A DNA stretch of 63,986 nt, filler included, from an uncultured Ignavibacteriales bacterium (GCA_964611355.1; 4 parts of 4 records of this genome joined end to end with filler, not necessarily neighbours in it); one strand, 5' to 3'. Counted from the first letter of the whole stretch, positions 1-9,643 are shown. Notes: generated by a model not told the origin, from the sequence alone. Program-made: numbers and translations.

Positions 1-2
1 AA

Positions 3-107
3 ACCGACGGTCGGGTTAACCCGCTCATGCCGGCAATGGGTCCCAACGTCGCCGGGGTGATCGGCTCCGCCGTCGCCGCAGGCGTATTTTTGACGTTTTT
101 GGGGTAG
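3..107 (+). CDS. oadB: Na+-translocating decarboxylase beta subunit, C-terminal fragment (5' truncated)
   Basis: Manual translation TDGRVNPLMPAMGPNVAGVIGSAVAAGVFLTFLG*; AMGPNVAGVIGS is the conserved OadB/GcdB/MmdB C-terminal motif. Confidence 0.85.
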   Translation, partial: TDGRVNPLMPAMGPNVAGVIGSAVAAGVFLTFLG

Positions 108-160
108 GATAATTTCGCCGTGCGCGTGAATGTCCCCGACGCACATATAAGCATAATTAT

Positions 161-200
161 AAAGCCGGTGGATGTCATCGTCCGCCGGTTTTTCTTTTTT
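161..200 (+). terminator. Intrinsic terminator after oadB
   Basis: Stem AAGCCGGTGGA/TCCGCCGGTTT followed by a T-rich tract. Confidence 0.75.
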
Positions 201-369
201 GCGGAATTATTACTTGCAAAAAATGGTAGACAGATATAAATTGATTCTATCATATTGCACTGCAGGAGAATTCGGAGAATGGATTATATTAAGGAGACGC
301 GGCCCCAACCCGGAAAAGCGGGGATAGGTTGTTTTTCTTCGTTATTTGGATGTATTTTAGAGCAGCAAT

Positions 370-1527
370 ATGGCCTATAGGAATATATCACAATTAAAGT
401 CAAGAATTGTAACGATTCTTAACGCGCAGGGTTACGCTGTAGATAAAAAGGGACATTTCTCTTTAATACAGAACAGTAGAGAAACGCGCCGCCGGGTTCA
501 TGAATTGGCAAAAGCGGAAAGGATTAGGCCAAGAATTAGTTTTATCAAGCGTTTTTCGTCAGTAGTTGGCGCAAATATTCCAAATGGTAGCGATATTCAA
601 GTAGAGAAAATTGATCCATTACTCATTGAGATAAAGCCTGACTCGGACGAAGAGGAATATTTCCGTTGGTGGAACCTGGTATGGTGGAGTCTTCCATATG
701 AAAAAGCTTATGGCAGACAGATGAGATACATAATTTGGGATACTTATCACAATGCTGTTATTGGTTTGATCGGACTTCAGAGCCCAATCCTCAGATGGGG
801 CGTCCGCGATGATTACCTAAACATATCTTTGGAGCAAAGAGACTATTGGATAAATCAATCCTTAAGTGCCCAGCGTTTAGGGGCTGTGCCGCCCTATAAT
901 CAGATTTTGGGCGGAAAATTGGTCTCTCTACTCTTGACTAGTAATAATATTAGAGAAGATTTTCGAAAAAAATACTATAATAAAATGACTATTATGAATC
1001 GTCGCAAACTGCCTGCGCGATTGTTATTTATTACGACAACGGGAGCCTACGGTAAGAGTAGTATATATCAACGGCTAAAGTTTAAAGATGAAGTTGTAGC
1101 GAAATTTATAGGATATTCGCATGGCTCGGGCTCATTCCATATTTCTAACGAAATTTATGATGACTTATTGATGTATCTTGATCGTCGGGGATACAATATC
1201 AAAAGGGGATTCGGCGCAGGTCCTTCCCGTAAGTTACGACTTATTGACACGGCGCTTGGTTTACTGGGATTTAAAGATGGCGCTAAACATGGTATTTTGC
1301 GCGCAGTTTATCTGTTTCCTTTGGCCAAGAACCTAGATAATGTTATTCAGTTCAATAAGCAACCTGTATGGTTTGATAGACCAATTTCGGACTTAACATC
1401 TTTCTGGAAACAGAGATGGGCTATACCACGAGTCGAACGCGATACATCATTTAGAAACTTCAAAGCCTCAGAATTTTTCGACGATGTGGAACACGAATTA
1501 GAAAATATCTGCAATTCCAAAAACTGA
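370..1527 (+). CDS. Druantia DruA-like protein (DUF4338)
   Basis: 385 aa; motifs WSLPYEKAYGRQMRYIIWD, VIGLIGL, LGAVPPYNQILGGKLV, TTTGAYGKSSIYQRL, GYSHGSGSFH, FGAGPSRKLR and W..RWAIPR match DruA/DUF4338 as I recall the family. Confidence 0.8.
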   Translation: MAYRNISQLKSRIVTILNAQGYAVDKKGHFSLIQNSRETRRRVHELAKAERIRPRISFIKRFSSVVGANIPNGSDIQVEKIDPLLIEIKPDSDEEEYFRWWNLVWWSLPYEKAYGRQMRYIIWDTYHNAVIGLIGLQSPILRWGVRDDYLNISLEQRDYWINQSLSAQRLGAVPPYNQILGGKLVSLLLTSNNIREDFRKKYYNKMTIMNRRKLPARLLFITTTGAYGKSSIYQRLKFKDEVVAKFIGYSHGSGSFHISNEIYDDLLMYLDRRGYNIKRGFGAGPSRKLRLIDTALGLLGFKDGAKHGILRAVYLFPLAKNLDNVIQFNKQPVWFDRPISDLTSFWKQRWAIPRVERDTSFRNFKASEFFDDVEHELENICNSKN

Positions 1528-1536
1528 GAGTGACGC

Positions 1537-2727
1537 ATGGAAGGCCAAATCGAAAACAAGGGAAATTATGCCCATCTTCCTGAAGAGTTAATGTCGAAGA
1601 TTCTGGAATCGGTTCCTCAGACGGTTGACAAGATGAATAAGATGTTTGACGTTCAAGAAAAGCCATTAAAGCAGGCTATTGATAAGCTAAGAAAATTAGG
1701 AATGACTCAATTTATATCTTCTGATGATTATTCGACATCATTGATTGCGGTGGACGGTGGAATGGTAGTTGATCGGATGACAGGTTCGGATTTACTTTTA
1801 GCTGTTGCGGTTGGTGTCGAAGGGTTAAGTGAAGACCCGAAAGCCGGTTGGGGCATTGACAGAAATCAATATTATCAATGGCAGACGGTTTTACCGCACG
1901 AAGAAGCAACGCCTCGTTTGGCCCAGGGTATCATGTTTCTAATGGAGTTAAGTGTATTAGCTCAATCGGAACATGAAATAAGGATTATGGATGGTACTCA
2001 CTTCACACCGATCTTAAAAATAAACAGCATGCTATCAGCAAAAGAAGAAAATGCTGGTCCTGAATACATTCAGGCTCTGAGGGATTTTTTATCGGATACT
2101 TACGAAAAAATTATACCTGACATACCTGATATAATTGCTTCGGCATTTCAAAATATTGCGATAATCGCTATAGCCAAATACTCATCTTCACGTGATATTC
2201 TTGATCAATACGCGCACGATTTTAAAATATCGGTCGATGATAAAACGTTTTTTGCCCTTACGCTCGATGAGAATGAATACCTTAATCCGCTTCCTGTCGG
2301 GCAAAGTGAAAATGAGCGTAGAAAAATATGGAATGATCTACATATCAAATGTAATCTTGAGATACCTGAAAAAGATGATTTGAATAATGCCCTGGAAAAG
2401 GCAGTCTATCCTTTAATTACTAAAAACAAAATGTCAGAACTACATTTTACGTATTTTAAGCCTTACGCCGATGGCCCCGCTTATCGCATTGAATTAAAAA
2501 AAGCCCTTGCAGAGAATAAAGATGATTTTGAAAAAACCCTCTTAAGTCTGAAAAAGCAGGTTGTTTTTCCCGAAATTCGCGAACCATACCCACAATATTT
2601 AGTTGATTTGATGGCCAAAAGCGTAGCGTCCGGTTTATACGCGATTCAAGAGGGTATAAAATTATCTCCTAATTTGGAATTGGATAAAGGGAGATTTAAT
2701 CTTATTTTTGGTTATAGGACAAAATAG
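1537..2727 (+). CDS. NurA-family nuclease
   Basis: 396 aa; acidic RNase H-like motifs IAVDGG and IMDGT, C-terminal EPYPQYLVDLMAK; directly upstream of a HerA ATPase. Confidence 0.8.
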   Translation: MEGQIENKGNYAHLPEELMSKILESVPQTVDKMNKMFDVQEKPLKQAIDKLRKLGMTQFISSDDYSTSLIAVDGGMVVDRMTGSDLLLAVAVGVEGLSEDPKAGWGIDRNQYYQWQTVLPHEEATPRLAQGIMFLMELSVLAQSEHEIRIMDGTHFTPILKINSMLSAKEENAGPEYIQALRDFLSDTYEKIIPDIPDIIASAFQNIAIIAIAKYSSSRDILDQYAHDFKISVDDKTFFALTLDENEYLNPLPVGQSENERRKIWNDLHIKCNLEIPEKDDLNNALEKAVYPLITKNKMSELHFTYFKPYADGPAYRIELKKALAENKDDFEKTLLSLKKQVVFPEIREPYPQYLVDLMAKSVASGLYAIQEGIKLSPNLELDKGRFNLIFGYRTK

Positions 2728-2729
2728 CT

Positions 2730-4511
2730 ATGTCTCAAGAAATTGATATCCTAAAAGTTATTGAAGATGATGAAGGCAAGATACTTGGTATTACAGGATC
2801 GCCAAGCACGACTATTGATATAACAATAGATATTAAGGAAGAAAGCAAATTAGGTCGTATTTTAGGCCAAATGGTCCATTTTGTGGTAGAAGAGGAAGAA
2901 AATCCTATATTAGTAATCGGTCAAGTTATATCAATTGAAACACAGAATCGTTGGCACCAGGATCCCACATTCAAAGGGGTTATACGGTTACATGGCAACC
3001 TGCCCCATTTAAGCGGTCGAGCCGATAATCGTGTTGCGACAATAAGTGTTCAAGCAGCTTATTCTGTAAAAAAGGAAACCAATGCTCAAGGACATGTCCT
3101 TGGAACATCACCTTCCACTGGTCTCCCCGTAAAGAAAATGTCAAATCCATTAATGAGTGCACTCATGAGACCGCATGAAAAGTATATAACTTATATGGGG
3201 CATGTTTACGGTACTGACGTAAATCTCCCTTTTTGGTTTAGGCATTTTGATAAGGGAGATGGGGGTGCTGGAGATGCCCACCACATAGGTGTTTTCGGCA
3301 AAACCGGGTCAGGAAAGTCAGTCACCGCAGCCTATATGCTACTTGGTTATGCAAAGAATAAAGAAAACATGAATATTTTGGTCTTGGATCCACAGGCACA
3401 GTTCTATTATGAAAAGGACTTCCCACCACTGCTTAAGATGAAGAATATGATTGAAAAGTGCGGCATGACGTATATAAAATACCACCTCCTTCAGGAGCTA
3501 TATTTGCCGGGAGATGAACATGAGCTCTTTGCATCAATGTTACAGAAAAACCGCTTTATCCAAAAAGCTTTTAATATCAAAAGCGATAGAGAGCTTGATG
3601 CGGGATTGGCAGTTGCCGAATATTTAGCCTCACGTTTCGAGAAGAGCAGAGGTTCTGCGGCAAATATGAATCGGCTTGATCGAACGACCAGCAAGAAATT
3701 GATGACTGATTTGCTTAATCGTTTTGTTAAAACAGATTCAAACAGTGATTCTAATAAATATATTGATTCAATATATACTTCAAGACCGTACAAGAACAAA
3801 CTTATGGACCATATTTCACGGTTGATTAATGCGAAGGAAGAGGTCGATGCTCTTTTTTCAAATTACTGGCATCCGATCGTTAAATATTTTCAAAGCAAAT
3901 CGGATGATGGCGTGAATAAAAAACCGATTGACGAAGTGATAAATCTGATATCTGATAAAGATCATAAGGGAAATATCGTTATCTTGGATATCAGTGGCGA
4001 ACAAGAGCGATTAGGTAGTGAAAATGTTAAGGCTCTTTTCGTCCGCTTGATCGAAGGACGAATAAAGGAAGTAGGGCAACGGTACTATGCCGAAGGGCAA
4101 AAGGTAAATTGTTTGATCGTGATGGATGAAGCACATCGATATATTTCACGAACTGCCGATGATCCACAGATTCAGGCGTTAACTCACGAGATAATCGATT
4201 CCGTTAGAACTACTCGAAAATTTGGCATCGGCTATATGTTCATTACTCAGACAATCGAGTCGCTCGATAAAGAGATCTTGCAGCAAACCCGGATATTTGC
4301 TTTTGGATATGGACTCACACTGGGTACGGAGATGAGGGTGATAGGCAATATCGTAAACAACGATAGCGCAATGAAATTGTACAGATCATTCATTGATCCG
4401 GGTGCGAATAATAGGTACCCGTTTATGTTCTATGGATCGGTATCGCCTTTGTCATTTACAGGTGCTCCTCTCTTCTTGGAGGTTTATACAAATCCCGGAG
4501 ATTTTCGTTAA
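2730..4511 (+). CDS. HerA/FtsK-family ATPase (DUF87) with N-terminal HAS-barrel-like region
   Basis: 593 aa; Walker A GKTGSGKS, VLDPQ, Walker B VMDEAHRY, RKFGIGYMFITQ. Confidence 0.88.
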   Translation: MSQEIDILKVIEDDEGKILGITGSPSTTIDITIDIKEESKLGRILGQMVHFVVEEEENPILVIGQVISIETQNRWHQDPTFKGVIRLHGNLPHLSGRADNRVATISVQAAYSVKKETNAQGHVLGTSPSTGLPVKKMSNPLMSALMRPHEKYITYMGHVYGTDVNLPFWFRHFDKGDGGAGDAHHIGVFGKTGSGKSVTAAYMLLGYAKNKENMNILVLDPQAQFYYEKDFPPLLKMKNMIEKCGMTYIKYHLLQELYLPGDEHELFASMLQKNRFIQKAFNIKSDRELDAGLAVAEYLASRFEKSRGSAANMNRLDRTTSKKLMTDLLNRFVKTDSNSDSNKYIDSIYTSRPYKNKLMDHISRLINAKEEVDALFSNYWHPIVKYFQSKSDDGVNKKPIDEVINLISDKDHKGNIVILDISGEQERLGSENVKALFVRLIEGRIKEVGQRYYAEGQKVNCLIVMDEAHRYISRTADDPQIQALTHEIIDSVRTTRKFGIGYMFITQTIESLDKEILQQTRIFAFGYGLTLGTEMRVIGNIVNNDSAMKLYRSFIDPGANNRYPFMFYGSVSPLSFTGAPLFLEVYTNPGDFR

Positions 4512-4893
4512 ATTCCTCTATTATCTCCGAGCTGTATATTACCAACTCGCCAGTCCATCATTTTCCCTTCTGAGAAATAGGATTCAATATCAAGGCGGCC
4601 TCCAATTCCCCCACACTTTCACCACAAAACCACCCCTGATTCCTGACCCGCTCGCATTTATAGACAACCATATTCTATAGGTATATCTATGTCGGTAAGT
4701 GAACGCAAGCTCAAGGCCAAAAGCCGGAATCAATCCGGCGAAAAGACCAAAAATGAAATGGGGCCCCCAAAATAATGACAAAACGAACCCAAATCACGAC
4801 CTCTATCCTGTGGCCTGCAATAAGTTCCCGTAAGTTGCGTTTTCAGCGGCGCACGGAAACAACCTTTAACCCTGAATTTCGAATTTCAGATAT

Positions 4894-5988
4894 TTATTTT
4901 ATCCGCTTCGAAAATCTGAGCCACGAGAAGGTAAAAATTACCGCACTGAAGATTATCATTGCAAGGATTTCAGGATAAAGGGCGTCAACGCCGGAACCTT
5001 TCATCATGATGCCACGGACGATTTTCATGAAATATCGCAGCGGGTTGAGATATGTGATATACTGCACCAGCTCCGGCATGTTTTCGATCGGCGTGAAAAA
5101 GCCGGAAGTCAAAATAGCGAAGATGGAAAAAAACCAGGCAAAAAACATCGCCTGCTGCTGCGTGCCCGTTACCGTCGAGATAAACATCCCCACGCCCAGC
5201 GCGGTGAACAGATAGATAAACGAAAGACTATAGAGCAGCGTCCACGAACCGGCAAACGGAATGTCAAACCATAAGATACCGAAAGCCAGCGCGATCGACA
5301 TCTCGACAAAACCAAGAATGGCAAACGGGATGGTTTTCCCCAGGATAAAGGCCGGGGTGGAAATCGGCGTAACCATCAACTGTTCCAGCGTTCCCACTTC
5401 GCGTTCGCGCACAATCCCCATTGAAGTCAGCATGGCCGTAATCATAGTCAGAAGAACGGCCACTATCCCCGGGACCATGTAGTAAACCGATTCACCTTCC
5501 GGGTTATAAAGGATTTTCTGCCGCATCGAAACAGGCCTTTCAACACCGGCGATGCGCTGGTTGAACTGCCCGGTTATCAGGCCGGCGTAACCGATGGCGA
5601 TGGCCGCCGAGTTGGCGTTGGTGGCGTCAACGATGAATCCGGCTTTGACCGACTTACCTTCTTCGAGCTTCTCCGAAAAATCCTCCGGGATAATCAGGGC
5701 GGTATTATAACGATTTTCGGTAAATCCCCGCTCAACCTCCGGAAGCGGAATATCGCTTGACCGGCAGACGAAATAATCCCCGGCCGAGAGCGAACGAACG
5801 AATTCGCGGGACAGTTGACTGCGGTCATAATCATAGACTGCGGTATAAATCTGCTTCACATCGACATTAATGGCGTATCCCAGTATCAGAAGCTGGATGA
5901 TCGGCATGAGAAAAATAAGGCTCAGCATTATGCGGTCGCGGAAAACCTGCAGGAATTCTTTTTTGACCAGCGCCAGTACCGTTCGCAT
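4894..5988 (-). CDS. ABC-2 type permease (YbhR-like)
   Basis: KEFLQVFRD, REREVGTLEQLMVTP, multiple TM helices. Confidence 0.92.
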   Translation of the reverse strand: MRTVLALVKKEFLQVFRDRIMLSLIFLMPIIQLLILGYAINVDVKQIYTAVYDYDRSQLSREFVRSLSAGDYFVCRSSDIPLPEVERGFTENRYNTALIIPEDFSEKLEEGKSVKAGFIVDATNANSAAIAIGYAGLITGQFNQRIAGVERPVSMRQKILYNPEGESVYYMVPGIVAVLLTMITAMLTSMGIVREREVGTLEQLMVTPISTPAFILGKTIPFAILGFVEMSIALAFGILWFDIPFAGSWTLLYSLSFIYLFTALGVGMFISTVTGTQQQAMFFAWFFSIFAILTSGFFTPIENMPELVQYITYLNPLRYFMKIVRGIMMKGSGVDALYPEILAMIIFSAVIFTFSWLRFSKRIK

Positions 5989-5994
5989 TCTTAC

Positions 5995-7101
5995 TTACCC
6001 GATTTTGATTTGGAACTTCTTCGCGGCAACGCCGAGAAGTACTACCGACAAGACCACCAACAACGCCGCCTGCGGCCAGAGCACATCGATCCCCGATCCC
6101 TTGAGCATGATCCCCCTGATAATCAAAATAAAATACCGCGCCGGTATGAGATAGGTTACAAGTTGAAGAATCTGTGGCATATTTTTAATCTCGAAGATAA
6201 ATCCGGAAAGCATTACCGATGGCAGCATCGTAACCACCATAGAAGCAATCATCGCCACCTGCTGGGTTTTGACCAGGGTCGAGATCAAAAGCCCCAGGGA
6301 CAACGCCGCGATAACATAGATAATGCCGAAAAGGAAAAGCAGGAAAACCGATCCGGTCATCGGGACGCCAAAAAAAAGAATGCCGAATCCCCAGACCAGA
6401 AGGCCGTCAAGCCCCGCCAGCCCAATGTATGGAATCACCTTGCCGATAATTATCTGATGCGGCTTCACCGGCGCGGTGAGAAGCTGCTCCATGGTGCCGG
6501 TCTCCTTTTCGCGGGCGATGGTGATTGACGTCAAAAGCGCCGAGATCATCATCAGGATTACGGCAATCAAACCCGGCACAAAAAAATGCGACGATTTCAA
6601 ATCGGGATTGTACAACACCTGCTGCGAAAGAACAACTCCCGGCATCTCGAAGCCGGGCGGCAAAAGGTCTTTCATAAATTGAAAAACAATTACGTTCGAA
6701 TAACCGGCCGCCGCCGCGCAGGTATTGGCATCGGCGCCGTCAAGCAAAAGCCCCAGTTGGAATTTATTGCCGGTTTTCACGGCTTTGGCAAATCCCGATT
6801 TAATGGTTAAGACGGCATTAGCGTCACCTTGTTTAAGCGCCCGTTCAGGGTCGGATAAATCGGCTTCGGCGAGCGGCCCGGTAAAATAGCCGGAATTGTA
6901 AAAACGGCCGACCAGTTCTCGCGATTCGGCCGTCCGATCATAATCAAGAACCGCTAGTTTGATATTCTTGATATCAAGATTGATGGCATAACCGTAAAGC
7001 AGCGTCATCAGGATCGGCATCAGGATGGCGATAAAAAGCGAGCGTGTATCCCGCAGGATATGGCGCACCTCTTTGAGGGCGATATATCGCAGTTTATCCA
7101 T
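5995..7101 (-). CDS. ABC-2 type permease (YbhS-like)
   Basis: KEVRHILRD, REKETGTMEQLLTAP, multiple TM helices. Confidence 0.92.
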   Translation of the reverse strand: MDKLRYIALKEVRHILRDTRSLFIAILMPILMTLLYGYAINLDIKNIKLAVLDYDRTAESRELVGRFYNSGYFTGPLAEADLSDPERALKQGDANAVLTIKSGFAKAVKTGNKFQLGLLLDGADANTCAAAAGYSNVIVFQFMKDLLPPGFEMPGVVLSQQVLYNPDLKSSHFFVPGLIAVILMMISALLTSITIAREKETGTMEQLLTAPVKPHQIIIGKVIPYIGLAGLDGLLVWGFGILFFGVPMTGSVFLLFLFGIIYVIAALSLGLLISTLVKTQQVAMIASMVVTMLPSVMLSGFIFEIKNMPQILQLVTYLIPARYFILIIRGIMLKGSGIDVLWPQAALLVVLSVVLLGVAAKKFQIKIG

Positions 7102-7837
7102 CAGCTTCGTTCCCGGAGATCAGGCTGATAAAGGTTTCCTGCAGGTCGGGCTGGTTGTGTTTTTCGATGAGTTCCCGAGGTTGCCCAGCTTCGATGATCC
7201 GGCCGTGATGCATAATTGAAATCCGACGGCAGAACTCGGCTTCATCCATGTAGTGCGTGGTGACAAACAGAGTCGCGCCGGAATCGGCCAGACGATACAG
7301 GATTTCCCAGAAACGCCGACGAAAAACCGGATCGACGCCCGCGGTCGGCTCGTCCAGAAAAACAATCCTGGGCTTGTGCAGTATAGCGGCCGCCAGGGCG
7401 ATTCTCTGCCGCCAGCCAACCGGCAGTGGACCGGTCGGTCGGTCAATGAAATCCTGCAGACCAAGATAACCGGTCAGTTCCTCGATTCTCATTTTCAAGC
7501 GGTGCGCCGGAATCTTATACACCGTCCCATAGAAGCTCAAATTTTCCCGCCCGGTCAGGTCGCTGTAAAGCGAAAACTTCTGCGACATGTAGCCGATGCT
7601 CTGCTTGATTTTTTCCGGCTCGCGGTTGACGTCAAAACCGTTTACGATGCCGTTTCCCGAGGTGGGCAGAAGCAATCCACAGAGCATCCTGATGGCGGTT
7701 GTTTTGCCCGCACCGTTGGCGCCGAGAAAACCGAATATTTCGCCATAATCAACCGTCAGGCTTATCCGGTCAACGGCGGTGAAACTGCCGAATTTCCTGG
7801 TTAATCGGTCTATGACTACGGCGTTGTCCATGACCAT
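7094..7837 (-). CDS. ABC transporter ATP-binding protein
   Basis: GANGAGKT, FLDEPT, TTHYMDEAE; signature motif degenerate (LPVGW). Confidence 0.93.
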   Translation of the reverse strand: MVMDNAVVIDRLTRKFGSFTAVDRISLTVDYGEIFGFLGANGAGKTTAIRMLCGLLLPTSGNGIVNGFDVNREPEKIKQSIGYMSQKFSLYSDLTGRENLSFYGTVYKIPAHRLKMRIEELTGYLGLQDFIDRPTGPLPVGWRQRIALAAAILHKPRIVFLDEPTAGVDPVFRRRFWEILYRLADSGATLFVTTHYMDEAEFCRRISIMHHGRIIEAGQPRELIEKHNQPDLQETFISLISGNEADG

Positions 7838-7844
7838 AAACCGC

Positions 7845-8759
7845 TCAATTACGCGAACCCATCAGTTGAATAAAAACATCTTCCAGTTCGGCCGGAATTT
7901 TCTCGACCAAATCACCGCCGATGCCGGCCGCGCTCAATCTCCTGACAATTTCATCCCGATCGGTTGTTTCGGGCGCATATAGATGTACCGAAGCTCCGAA
8001 GCGGTGCGCATTGATGTCCTCAATCTGTTCCAATTGATACATACGATCGGCGGTTGGTTCCACTCGTAACTGAAAAACGCTTCCTCGATACCGGGCGGCC
8101 AGTTCATTCGGGGCGCCTTCGGCCAGCTTTTTCCCGCCATGTATAAATACCGCCCGATTCGCCAGCGTTACCTCATCCATGTAAGGAGTAGAAACGGCAA
8201 TCGACGAGCCGTCATCGCGCAGCGATTTGAGAATATCCCAGAACTGTCGCCGTGACAGCGGATCAACGCCGGTGGTCGGCTCATCAAGGATAAGTATCTT
8301 CGGGTTGTGAATCAGGTTACAACTGAGAGCCAGCTTCTGTTTCATTCCGCCCGACAGGTCGGCGGCTCGTCTGTCGCAAAAAGGCCCAAGTCCCGAAAAT
8401 CGATAAAGCAATTTCTTTCTTGTTTCGAATTCGTCGCGGCTTAACCCGAAAAGCCCGGCATAAAAACGGAGGTTTTCCTCGACAGATAGATCGGGATAAA
8501 GCGAGAACGTCTGTGGCATATATCCAAGAAGCGGCTTTATTTTCTCGAAATCGGCCGCCACGCTGTAACCCGATATATGGACTTCCCCGCTGTCAAAACG
8601 AATAAGGCCGCATATCGAACGAAACAGGGATGTCTTGCCGGCGCCGTCGGGGCCGACCAGCGCAACTATTTCGCTCTCGCCGATGGTAAGGCTGAAATCA
8701 TCCACCGCCGTCAGCGAACCATATTTCCTGGTCAAATTCCTGACTTCTATCGGGATCAT
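7845..8759 (-). CDS. ABC transporter ATP-binding protein
   Basis: GPDGAGKT, LSGGMKQK, ILDEPT. Confidence 0.93.
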   Translation of the reverse strand: MIPIEVRNLTRKYGSLTAVDDFSLTIGESEIVALVGPDGAGKTSLFRSICGLIRFDSGEVHISGYSVAADFEKIKPLLGYMPQTFSLYPDLSVEENLRFYAGLFGLSRDEFETRKKLLYRFSGLGPFCDRRAADLSGGMKQKLALSCNLIHNPKILILDEPTTGVDPLSRRQFWDILKSLRDDGSSIAVSTPYMDEVTLANRAVFIHGGKKLAEGAPNELAARYRGSVFQLRVEPTADRMYQLEQIEDINAHRFGASVHLYAPETTDRDEIVRRLSAAGIGGDLVEKIPAELEDVFIQLMGSRN

Positions 8760-9643
8760 AGAATCCTTACCGAAACAGGCATGCCGATCTTGAGCGTTTC
8801 ATCGGGATTGGGAATAATTATTTTGACGGCATAAACCAGATCGGCCCTGGCTTCTCTGGTTTGCACATTCTTGGGAGTAAACTCCGCCTCCGATGATATC
8901 CAACTAATATAACCGGACAGCGCCCTGTCGCGACCGTCTTCGGGATCGACTTCGGCTTTGTCGCCCAGCTTAATCCGGGTCAGATCCTCCGGAGGGAGAT
9001 AAATCTTGACCCATACCGTATCAAGCCGGGCCATTTTGATTAATGGTTTTCCCACGCCAACCAGTTCACCGCTTTCAATGTAGGTAGTAACCACAATGCC
9101 GCCGGAAGGAGCGGTCGGATGGCAGTCGGAAAGCTGTTTTTCGAGCAGGGCGATTTCAGCGTCGATTCTTTCCAGGTCGGCTTCGGCCGCCTGAAGACCG
9201 GCCTCGGCTGCCTTTTTGGCCAGTTTGGCCTGCTGAAACCTGTTTTCTGTCTGGTCAAACTGCTGCTGGTTGGCCGAACCGGTTTTTAACAGGCGGCTGA
9301 TCCGGTTGTATTCTTTTTCAGCCAGGTTGATATCCAACGTCGTCTTTTCCACCTGGAGTCGGGCTGAATATTTTTGAGTTTCGGCCGCATGACGGCACGC
9401 TCTCGCCTGTGCCGACCGAAGAGACAGGGTCGTGGTATCAATCAGAGCAATGGTATCGCCGGGATTGATACGGTCTCCTTCATCGAAAAAAAGTTTTTCC
9501 AGTCTTCCGGCCGTTTCCGCGGAAATGACTATTTCGGTCGCCTCAATCAGACCCGACCCGCCGGGGACGGCATCGCCGCTGCTGCACGAAATAATGGCGA
9601 AAGCAACAATGCTGAAAAGGACAGCGCAAAATACCCTGTTCAT
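8756..9643 (-). CDS. HlyD-family periplasmic adaptor (probable lipoprotein)
   Basis: Lipobox-like IISC, coiled coil, AEFTPKNVQT motif of YbhG-like adaptors. Confidence 0.9.
   Translation of the reverse strand: MNRVFCAVLFSIVAFAIISCSSGDAVPGGSGLIEATEIVISAETAGRLEKLFFDEGDRINPGDTIALIDTTTLSLRSAQARACRHAAETQKYSARLQVEKTTLDINLAEKEYNRISRLLKTGSANQQQFDQTENRFQQAKLAKKAAEAGLQAAEADLERIDAEIALLEKQLSDCHPTAPSGGIVVTTYIESGELVGVGKPLIKMARLDTVWVKIYLPPEDLTRIKLGDKAEVDPEDGRDRALSGYISWISSEAEFTPKNVQTREARADLVYAVKIIIPNPDETLKIGMPVSVRIL

Follow-up and report, generated by a model that had tools for sequence, protein, structure and literature searches.

In the compact defence systems Sir2-HerA and DUF4297-HerA, the effector partners are controlled by a HerA platform, and among the Druantia systems type II has a methyltransferase (DruM) in place of the DruA protein of type I. 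In TdpAB of thermophiles (PDB 8wet and 8wfd), a HerA-like ATPase has a nuclease as its partner and works next to one modification gene, tdpC (PMC12914056). HerA-NurA is an ATP-driven complex that threads DNA from an end into the nuclease and performs end-dependent resection in archaea and Deinococcus. Here we describe a 4.1-kb cassette of three genes, druA, nurA and herA, at positions 370 to 4511 of a 63,986-nucleotide stretch of DNA (the window) from an uncultured Ignavibacteriales bacterium (GCA_964611355.1). Bases 1 to 20481 of the window are a single contig, and bases 20482 to 63986 are N or other contigs; the source assembly comprises 2.57 Mb in 110 contigs and is 96% complete. The cassette brings known modules together in a new combination, for which the literature within reach has no name, and its three genes form a real, obligately linked unit. 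It is probably a defence cassette in which HerA-NurA would act as the DNA-degrading effector.

With type I Druantia the cassette shares a full-length DruA, the window protein being 33% identical over 95% of its length to the DruA of the DruABCDE system on P. putida pKF715A, a canonical operon in which DruA is followed by four genes, the last encoding an 1841-amino-acid (aa) helicase. The two differ in that the window locus has no DruB, DruC, DruD or DruE, with NurA-HerA in their place. This absence had been noted in a first-pass annotation of the window made from its sequence, and it holds: the neighbouring genes are oadB, nurA, herA and an ABC transporter. The MZB/DUF1998 domain of the DruE type (PF09369) was not found in a search of the 96%-complete genome; the same search was positive in 8 of 14 control genomes. 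Druantia type IV, as defined in PADLOC, consists of DruE, DruF and DruL. The closest architecture appears to be that of TdpABC, likewise a three-gene unit, in which a HerA-like ring ATPase and its nuclease partner are combined with one putative modification enzyme. The difference lies in the modification gene, as DruA has a predicted GNAT fold whereas tdpC, compared by its description only, is a phosphorothioate gene, and the similarity to TdpA and TdpB is marginal (8wet_A, E 1.2e-3; 8wfd_G, Foldseek E 9.6e-5).

Compactness, the combination of a HerA-family ATPase with an effector, and residence in defence islands are shared with Sir2-HerA and DUF4297-HerA, to which the nearest solved HerA proteins also belong. 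The cassette differs from both in its putative effector, a NurA nuclease, and in the third gene, druA; neither a Sir2 nor a DUF4297 domain was found in the three cassette proteins with Pfam and PADLOC. Both folds and the same catalytic motifs are shared with the archaeal and Deinococcus-Thermus HerA-NurA end-resection complex. In contrast to that complex, the cassette is patchy and apparently horizontal in its distribution, has DruA as an obligate member, resides in defence islands and has no mre11-rad50 linkage: neither mre11 nor rad50 is among the neighbours in the window or at 13 related loci, as the same annotation had stated for the window.

Full-text literature searches, with subscription journals and supplements outside their scope and a table entry possible, returned no description of a DruA-NurA-HerA system, and the YprA/ARMADA preprint contains no occurrence of NurA, HerA or DUF4338. 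In agreement with the expectation that the architecture is uncatalogued and would give no complete system call, PADLOC recognizes DruA, has no model that matches the window NurA, and gives HerA matches that, like those of the NCBIfam anti-phage HerA models, are partial and far under the cut-offs. No NCBIfam model came near its cut-off on any of the three cassette proteins.

Linkage of druA, nurA and herA across phyla

The three open reading frames (ORFs) lie head to tail on the plus strand. They comprise druA at 370-1527, which encodes a DUF4338 protein of 385 aa; nurA at 1537-2727, which encodes a NurA-like nuclease of 396 aa with an RNase H-like NurA fold; and herA at 2730-4511, which encodes a HerA-like ATPase of the FtsK/HerA superfamily of 593 aa. 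The first assignment draws on Pfam DruA, PADLOC DruA1 and a predicted structure, the second on Pfam NurA, Foldseek and invariant residues, and the third on Pfam DUF87, solved relatives and invariant residues. According to the ORF listing, 9 nt separate druA from nurA and 2 nt separate nurA from herA, exactly the co-directional arrangement that had been described for the site.

A NurA-based search with one genome per species found 15 loci, hosted by Patescibacteria, Omnitrophota, Gamma-, Alpha- and Deltaproteobacteria, Bacteroidota and Planctomycetota. All three genes are present at 14 of these loci, and the contig of the 15th stops inside nurA. The order druA-nurA-herA is kept at 13 of the 14 complete loci; at the other (L015) druA is inverted and lies 3' of herA. 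A DruA search of metagenomes with an alignment as the query gave 80 loci, 71 of them distinct, and the same kind of search with a single DruA protein as the query found nothing. The complete trio is present at 52 of the 71 distinct loci. Nine more have DruA and NurA on a contig that stops before herA, one has HerA and DruA with NurA beyond the contig, and seven are uninformative, five having no room on either side and two (L062 and L093) having room upstream only. Among the 64 informative loci, the triad is present, complete or clipped by the contig, at 62, and the real exceptions are two (L047 and L108). Recurrence of the triad elsewhere, on which the reading of the window's copy had been made to depend, is borne out by both collections.

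The linkage extends to divergent members. NurA is at least 58% identical to that of the window at 40 of the 61 loci with a visible nurA, 45 to 58% identical at 14, and less than 30% identical at 7 (at these last seven, DruA is still 45 to 60% identical). One of the NurA proteins below 30% identity was compared with the family profile and matched it with an hhalign probability of 99.6, with the catalytic positions retained. A variant gene order, NurA-HerA-DruA, is found at L113 and L117. At L117 (4185-5995) herA is broken into ORFs of 133 and 452 aa, which may reflect a frameshift. At L114, 3.7 kb separates herA and druA, whereas L113, with the same DruA, has both genes adjacent, which suggests an insertion in L114.

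The two exceptions are of different kinds. L108 (6001-9084) has a lone DruA followed by about 1 kb without an ORF of at least 70 aa, and a faint trace of the HerA C terminus at 8716-8835 (E 0.068); it may be a decayed cassette. At L047 (1669-6200) the DruA belongs to the cassette clade (57% identical) but is an orphan, and next to it come genes for a DnaD-like helicase loader, a DnaB-like helicase and RusA, a neighbourhood that resembles a phage-type replication module, with neither NurA nor HerA within 3.8 kb downstream of the orphan. Phage-borne modification genes that evade restriction sit in phage replication modules. A 381-aa ORF 3' of the L047 DruA was considered as a hidden NurA and ruled out (hhalign probability 0.12); it encodes the DnaD-like loader. 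A distant four-gene NurA-HerA operon was also observed beside a Rep3 initiator gene on the Rhizobium leguminosarum plasmid pRlX5 (L133, 4644-10874). It encodes an unknown 387-aa protein, a NurA-like protein, a HerA-like protein and a 678-aa HATPase_c_3 (GHKL) protein, and may be a further NurA-HerA system, likewise without a name, in which the partner proteins differ.

Folds and catalytic residues of NurA and HerA

The Pfam match of NurA (PF09376; 25 bits, E 1.5e-5) is above the 21-bit cut-off but weak, and it is backed by the fold match of an AlphaFold model of moderate confidence (pLDDT 68.7), built from 48 homologues. The 10 best Foldseek rows of this model are all NurA structures, led by 2ygk_A (E 8.8e-10), with chain G of TdpAB at rank 11 and the Deinococcus HerA-NurA complex at rank 16. 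Residues D73, E95, D152, H155, D357 and K361 are invariant in the 48 sequences, as are both 'DG' motifs, D73-G74 and D152-G153. A 2026 review (PMC13748450) places the 'DG' aspartates of NurA in motifs I and II and a histidine in motif III; motif III of the present family is a variant of this description, because D357...K361 stands where the review gives the histidine. The D/E/D/D/K positions are retained in a 26%-identical subtype. In a search of 1.84 billion representative proteins, the subfamily comprised 351 clusters at E <= 1e-3 and 34 clusters at E <= 1e-30.

HerA matches Pfam DUF87 (PF01935) with 47.1 bits (E 4.2e-12, cut-off 23.2 bits). Across 14 aligned sequences the Walker A motif G190-K196 (G190 and G193-K196) and the Walker B pair D466-E467 are invariant; the N-terminal region is conserved and the helical middle is variable. 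The first-pass annotation had named the aspartates of the NurA DGG/DGT motifs and the Walker A lysine of HerA, and in the alignments D73 and D152 of NurA and K196 of HerA are all invariant. The nearest solved sequences are distant (E 7e-6 to 5e-3) and comprise the DUF4297 and Sir2 defence HerAs (8xau and 8wiv), Sulfolobus HerA and TdpA, the match to the last being weak. Weak matches to terminase and conjugation ATPases were also found. The assignment of the effector role to HerA-NurA draws on the NurA fold, the invariant D73, E95, D152 and D357, the intact Walker A and B motifs, the analogy with TdpAB, and the reported inhibition of two other HerA systems by the phage end-binding protein Gam (10.1101/2024.04.14.589459).

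Genomic context, distribution and insertion site

Among the metagenome loci, 29 had enough flank for a scan of neighbouring genes, and 24 of these were scanned with PADLOC (120 of 149 ORFs). Outside the PADLOC scan were L041 and L117 (Pfam-scanned), L047, and L060 and L062, whose upstream ORF layout repeats that of L053 and L061; the ORFs omitted from the scan were two of L108 (133 and 100 aa) and one of 127 aa. PADLOC matches at E <= 1e-15 lie within 4 kb of the cassette at 20 of the 24 loci, with none at L043, L096, L107 and L108. In the genome set, defence or toxin-antitoxin Pfam families are found beside the cassette at 6 of 13 loci (restriction, Shedu, OLD-type ATPase, Thoeris-type TIR and Panacea), serine recombinases flank it at 4, and L002, L011 and L012 have housekeeping flanks only. 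Other neighbours are CBASS (L059), an E2/E1 pair (L041), and a Schlafen-type helicase with MazG, RadC and YhcG (L117). The location in defence islands anticipated from the window's copy is borne out by the 20 of 24 loci. A small Xre-type helix-turn-helix gene, which may be a regulator, lies directly 5' of druA at L006 (6583-6822) and L009 (6557-6778), and none is present at the window's copy.

Restriction-modification genes of types I, II, IIG and III end right before druA on the same strand at 10 of the 23 PADLOC-scanned triad loci (L053, L065, L067, L068, L073, L077, L086, L099, L106 and L111), and the genome loci L003 and L005 also have such genes directly 5' of druA and on its strand. L005 and L099 look like one arrangement, and the cassette appears as if appended to the operons of these upstream genes. 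In E. coli, RecBCD finishes off restriction-cut DNA. The second rival explanation gives the cassette a comparable helper function, in which NurA-HerA would finish DNA cut by the neighbouring restriction enzyme and DruA would tune or protect, and the end-dependent resection carried out by HerA-NurA in archaea and Deinococcus speaks for it together with the upstream genes. The partner systems, however, are of four differing types, many copies of the cassette (the window's included) have no restriction genes nearby, and plain clustering in defence islands yields the same picture. We consider a helper function unlikely.

Judged by sequence comparison, the cassette is accessory, patchy in its distribution and horizontally spread. 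Only one of 60 relatives carries it (G013, of the same family, with a NurA 74% identical and an unrelated context), and it occurs in 2 of 285 genomes of the phylum, the window's own included. In the phylum of the L005 genome, it was found in 1 of 401 sampled genomes, namely that of L005 itself, and in none of the 400 others. NurA is nevertheless 62 to 76% identical across phyla. The horizontal acquisition proposed for the window's copy is borne out by the two low counts for relatives and phylum and by the differing context in G013. The same distribution bears on an ordinary DNA-repair module, in which bacterial HerA-NurA end resection would be combined with an accessory acetyltransferase. Archaea use NurA-HerA for resection, and in Deinococcus and Thermus the homologues take part in repair, but genes for repair would hardly be confined to 2 of 285 genomes of one phylum, be 62 to 76% identical between phyla, have defence neighbours at 20 of 24 loci or lack mre11-rad50 beside them. 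Such a repair function is very improbable.

We also considered that the cassette is a selfish mobile unit, or the replication or packaging machinery of a mobile element, and not host defence. Many cassette-bearing metagenome contigs are just 4 to 5 kb long, serine recombinases or primase-helicase genes are near several loci, and the weak HerA matches to terminase and conjugation ATPases point in the same direction. Against this, a self-mobile element was rejected at the window, where no terminal inverted repeats pair 193-369 with 4512-4893 and the genome holds a single copy (one cassette and one DruA). A crude scan for core sites plus folding, which covered 500 bases to the left and right of 14 loci, detected no attC-like sites of the kind that end integron gene cassettes. 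No copy was found among the IMG/VR viral contigs, and no close copy on 72,556 plasmids, which gave one distant NurA match (25.5%). The sole match in phages is a weak DruA-like protein of Pelagibacter phage HTVC008M (25.8%, E 4e-4). A role restricted to mobile elements appears extremely improbable.

At the window, the cassette lies in an AT-rich insert whose approximate extent, 193-4607, is given by the GC profile, the departures of metagenome contigs (after 103 and before 4608/4612) and a host repeat from about 4608. GC content is 0.358 to 0.432 in windows between 251 and 4250 versus 0.48 to 0.558 from 5001 onward. The left flank is the 3' end of the host gene oadB (1-108, plus strand), read from the sequence and ending near 108, of which window bases 1-94 are 84% identical to the 3' end of the OAD_beta gene (PF03977, E 4.2e-151) of the family relative G012. 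The upstream context of druA is limited to 369 bases because the contig begins at window base 1. A terminator-like hairpin with a T-run follows oadB at 161-202 on the plus strand (14-pair stem at 161-192), and the AT-rich insert starts beyond it. A promoter-like site 5' of druA (227-256, plus strand) matches the consensus alone at 9 of 12 hexamer positions and is weak, because such sites are no commoner in the region than in shuffled sequence. To the right, a convergent operon encoding an ABC-2 permease and an ABC ATPase lies on the minus strand (4894-8759, Pfam). Both the AT-richness relative to the flanks and the position between the oadB terminator and a convergent efflux operon had been noted in the first-pass annotation, and the GC profile and these features confirm them. 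Orthologues of the ABC-2 permease are present in 9 of 13 family relatives, and only G012 retains oadB near it, with Metallophos, Peptidase_S41 and OMP genes between. No clean empty site was found among the 13 family relatives, and the spot is not a defence hotspot. Rfam found nothing of note in window bases 1-5200, the sole row being isrP (E 0.71).

The approximately 190 bases just 3' of herA (4608-4795) are a member of a host repeat family, which may be the end of an insertion sequence or a small mobile repeat and contains a short ORF beginning at 4690. A second copy on contig C28 is 88 to 96% identical, with 71 additional bases in mid-repeat, and a piece of about 45 bases (4751-4795) is found at at least nine places, several of which are contig ends. 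Metagenome depth is 3- to 8-fold higher over 4558-4991, and many contigs depart at 4608, 4720, 4759 and 4795. One metagenome contig (run X2, shorter side 41 letters) links positions 248 and 4608 on opposite strands. This joint is the one expected from an inverted orientation of the whole cassette-bearing segment; only this contig shows it and its right-hand counterpart was not seen, so it may have arisen in assembly. A contig of the same run tracks oadB to 103 and continues with 149 unrelated letters, which suggests a same-habitat strain or relative without the cassette at this site.

DruA and the proposed mechanism

The first ORF had been read as DUF4338/DruA, and profile searches concur. DruA matches Pfam PF14236 over profile positions 4-294 of 297 (E 2e-64, 218.1 bits, cut-off 27) and the PADLOC DruA1 model at E 1.5e-88. 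The predicted structure (pLDDT 85.5, built from 64 sequences) has a GNAT-fold core at about residues 77-336, an N-terminal region of helix, hairpin and long helix, and C-terminal helices. In a structural search (VIA), 50 of the 50 listed rows are GNAT-superfamily folds aligned to residues 77-336 (Z 10.2 to 8.4), and the GNAT assignment is consistent with work of the Aravind group (PMC10853773), in which DUF4338 is listed as GNAT-like and occurs in fusions with DndF restriction proteins. The alignment of 64 sequences has 77 invariant columns. After strand 164-172, at what may be the position of the acyl-donor binding loop that follows strand 4 in GNATs, it shows an invariant N177, a near-invariant G181-G182 and an invariant K183, and many conserved basic residues lie outside the GNAT core. 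A sequence search for solved relatives of DruA found none, and the complex prediction for NurA and DruA scored 0.00, which is no verdict either way.

The top fold match of DruA is phage Mu Mom (8bv8_B; Z 10.2, rmsd 3.4), with 168 residues aligned in the second-longest alignment. The catalytic residues of Mom are R111 and S124. In addition to the match of the GNAT core, the two proteins share a helical insertion late in the fold, which is present in Mom and is predicted in DruA as helices 260-298; DruA, at 385 aa, differs by additional parts at both termini. Mom belongs to the GNATs and modifies double-stranded DNA by moving glycine from charged tRNA onto adenine N6 (PMC13219725). A preprint describes a unique 'm6A' signal in E. 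coli with type I Druantia, a system without a methylase domain, and does not assign the signal to a gene.

We hypothesize that the HerA ring ATPase would load on DNA, probably at ends, and would feed it into the NurA nuclease, which would degrade it. DruA, as a GNAT-fold transferase, would put a non-methyl mark on adenine N6 of the cell's own DNA, and unmarked incoming DNA alone would be degraded, from its ends, following the logic of restriction-modification. This full statement, of a defence cassette with a HerA-NurA effector and DruA as a self-marking DNA modifier, is offered tentatively, as a plausible account that falls short of a probable one; that the cassette protects and that HerA-NurA is the effector are its firmer parts, and DNA modification by DruA is the most speculative. 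The self-marking arm is suggested by the nominal top match to Mom, the 'm6A' signal of Druantia, the DndF fusions and the orphan DruA in a phage module. More specifically, it is conceivable, if doubtful, that DruA is a cellular counterpart of Mom and attaches a group of acyl or aminoacyl origin to adenine N6 in the DNA of its host cell. The cassette would then be a minimal restriction-modification system with a self-mark that is neither methyl nor phosphorothioate, and the same activity would account for the 'm6A' signal of type I Druantia.

Several observations weigh against this account. The Mom match is a tie, because its lead over ordinary GNAT acetyltransferases is less than 1 Z unit, the sequence identity between DruA and Mom is 8%, and Foldseek with the DruA model gave no PDB match at E <= 1e-3, the rows being GNAT-like but weak. 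A GNAT fold leaves the acylated substrate undefined, since GNATs commonly act on proteins, tRNAs and small molecules alike. The 'm6A' preprint assigns no part of the signal to DruA, and the orphan DruA in a phage module is a single case among 64 loci. The first gene of the L133 operon is unrelated to DruA (hhalign probability 0.25), with a GHKL ATPase present instead; as L133 lacks DruA, a NurA-HerA nuclease module needs no DruA as such. The window's own cassette, moreover, is flanked by housekeeping genes, outside any defence island.

The main rival retains the defence system and makes DruA a sensor or regulator, which would bind or acylate a phage component, or NurA or HerA, and thereby switch on degradation. 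It draws on the same linkage and context evidence, and most GNATs acylate proteins or small molecules, as in most of the DruA fold-match rows. DruA also pairs with unrelated effectors (DruBCDE on pKF715A, the DndF fusions and NurA-HerA), a pattern that fits a portable sensor or a portable modifier equally. However, a sensor leaves both the adenine signal of type I Druantia and the orphan DruA in a phage replication module unexplained, and we regard this role as somewhat unlikely.

The fold matches bear on abortive infection as well, in which DruA would be the toxic effector (e.g., an acetylase of charged tRNA like TacT or AtaT) and HerA-NurA would sense phage DNA ends. A tRNA-acetylating GNAT toxin, 7byy, is among the matches (Z 8.5), and known HerA systems carry cell-killing effectors (PMC11472057 and PMC11514289). 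DruA, however, is more than twice the size of the TacT and AtaT toxins, with its many conserved basic residues outside the core, and the full invariant catalytic set of NurA argues that NurA is itself the effector; a toxic DruA is highly unlikely. The reading in which HerA-NurA degrades DNA and DruA may mark the cell's own DNA is the one we carry forward.

If the broad claim of a defence cassette alone is true, an unnamed defence system is distributed across many phyla, mostly in uncultivated bacteria, with the tiny-genome Patescibacteria included, and the HerA-containing defence systems would gain a member that is based on NurA. If it is true that DruA modifies DNA, bacterial immunity would have a self-mark of a new chemical kind. 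Type I Druantia counts as one of the most potent anti-phage systems described, and the 4.1-kb cassette offers a compact handle on DruA function that is much simpler to take apart than the 12-kb operon of Druantia; NurA-HerA, moreover, has solved structures and established biochemistry. A Mom-like activity of DruA, if true, would explain the job of this protein in Druantia.

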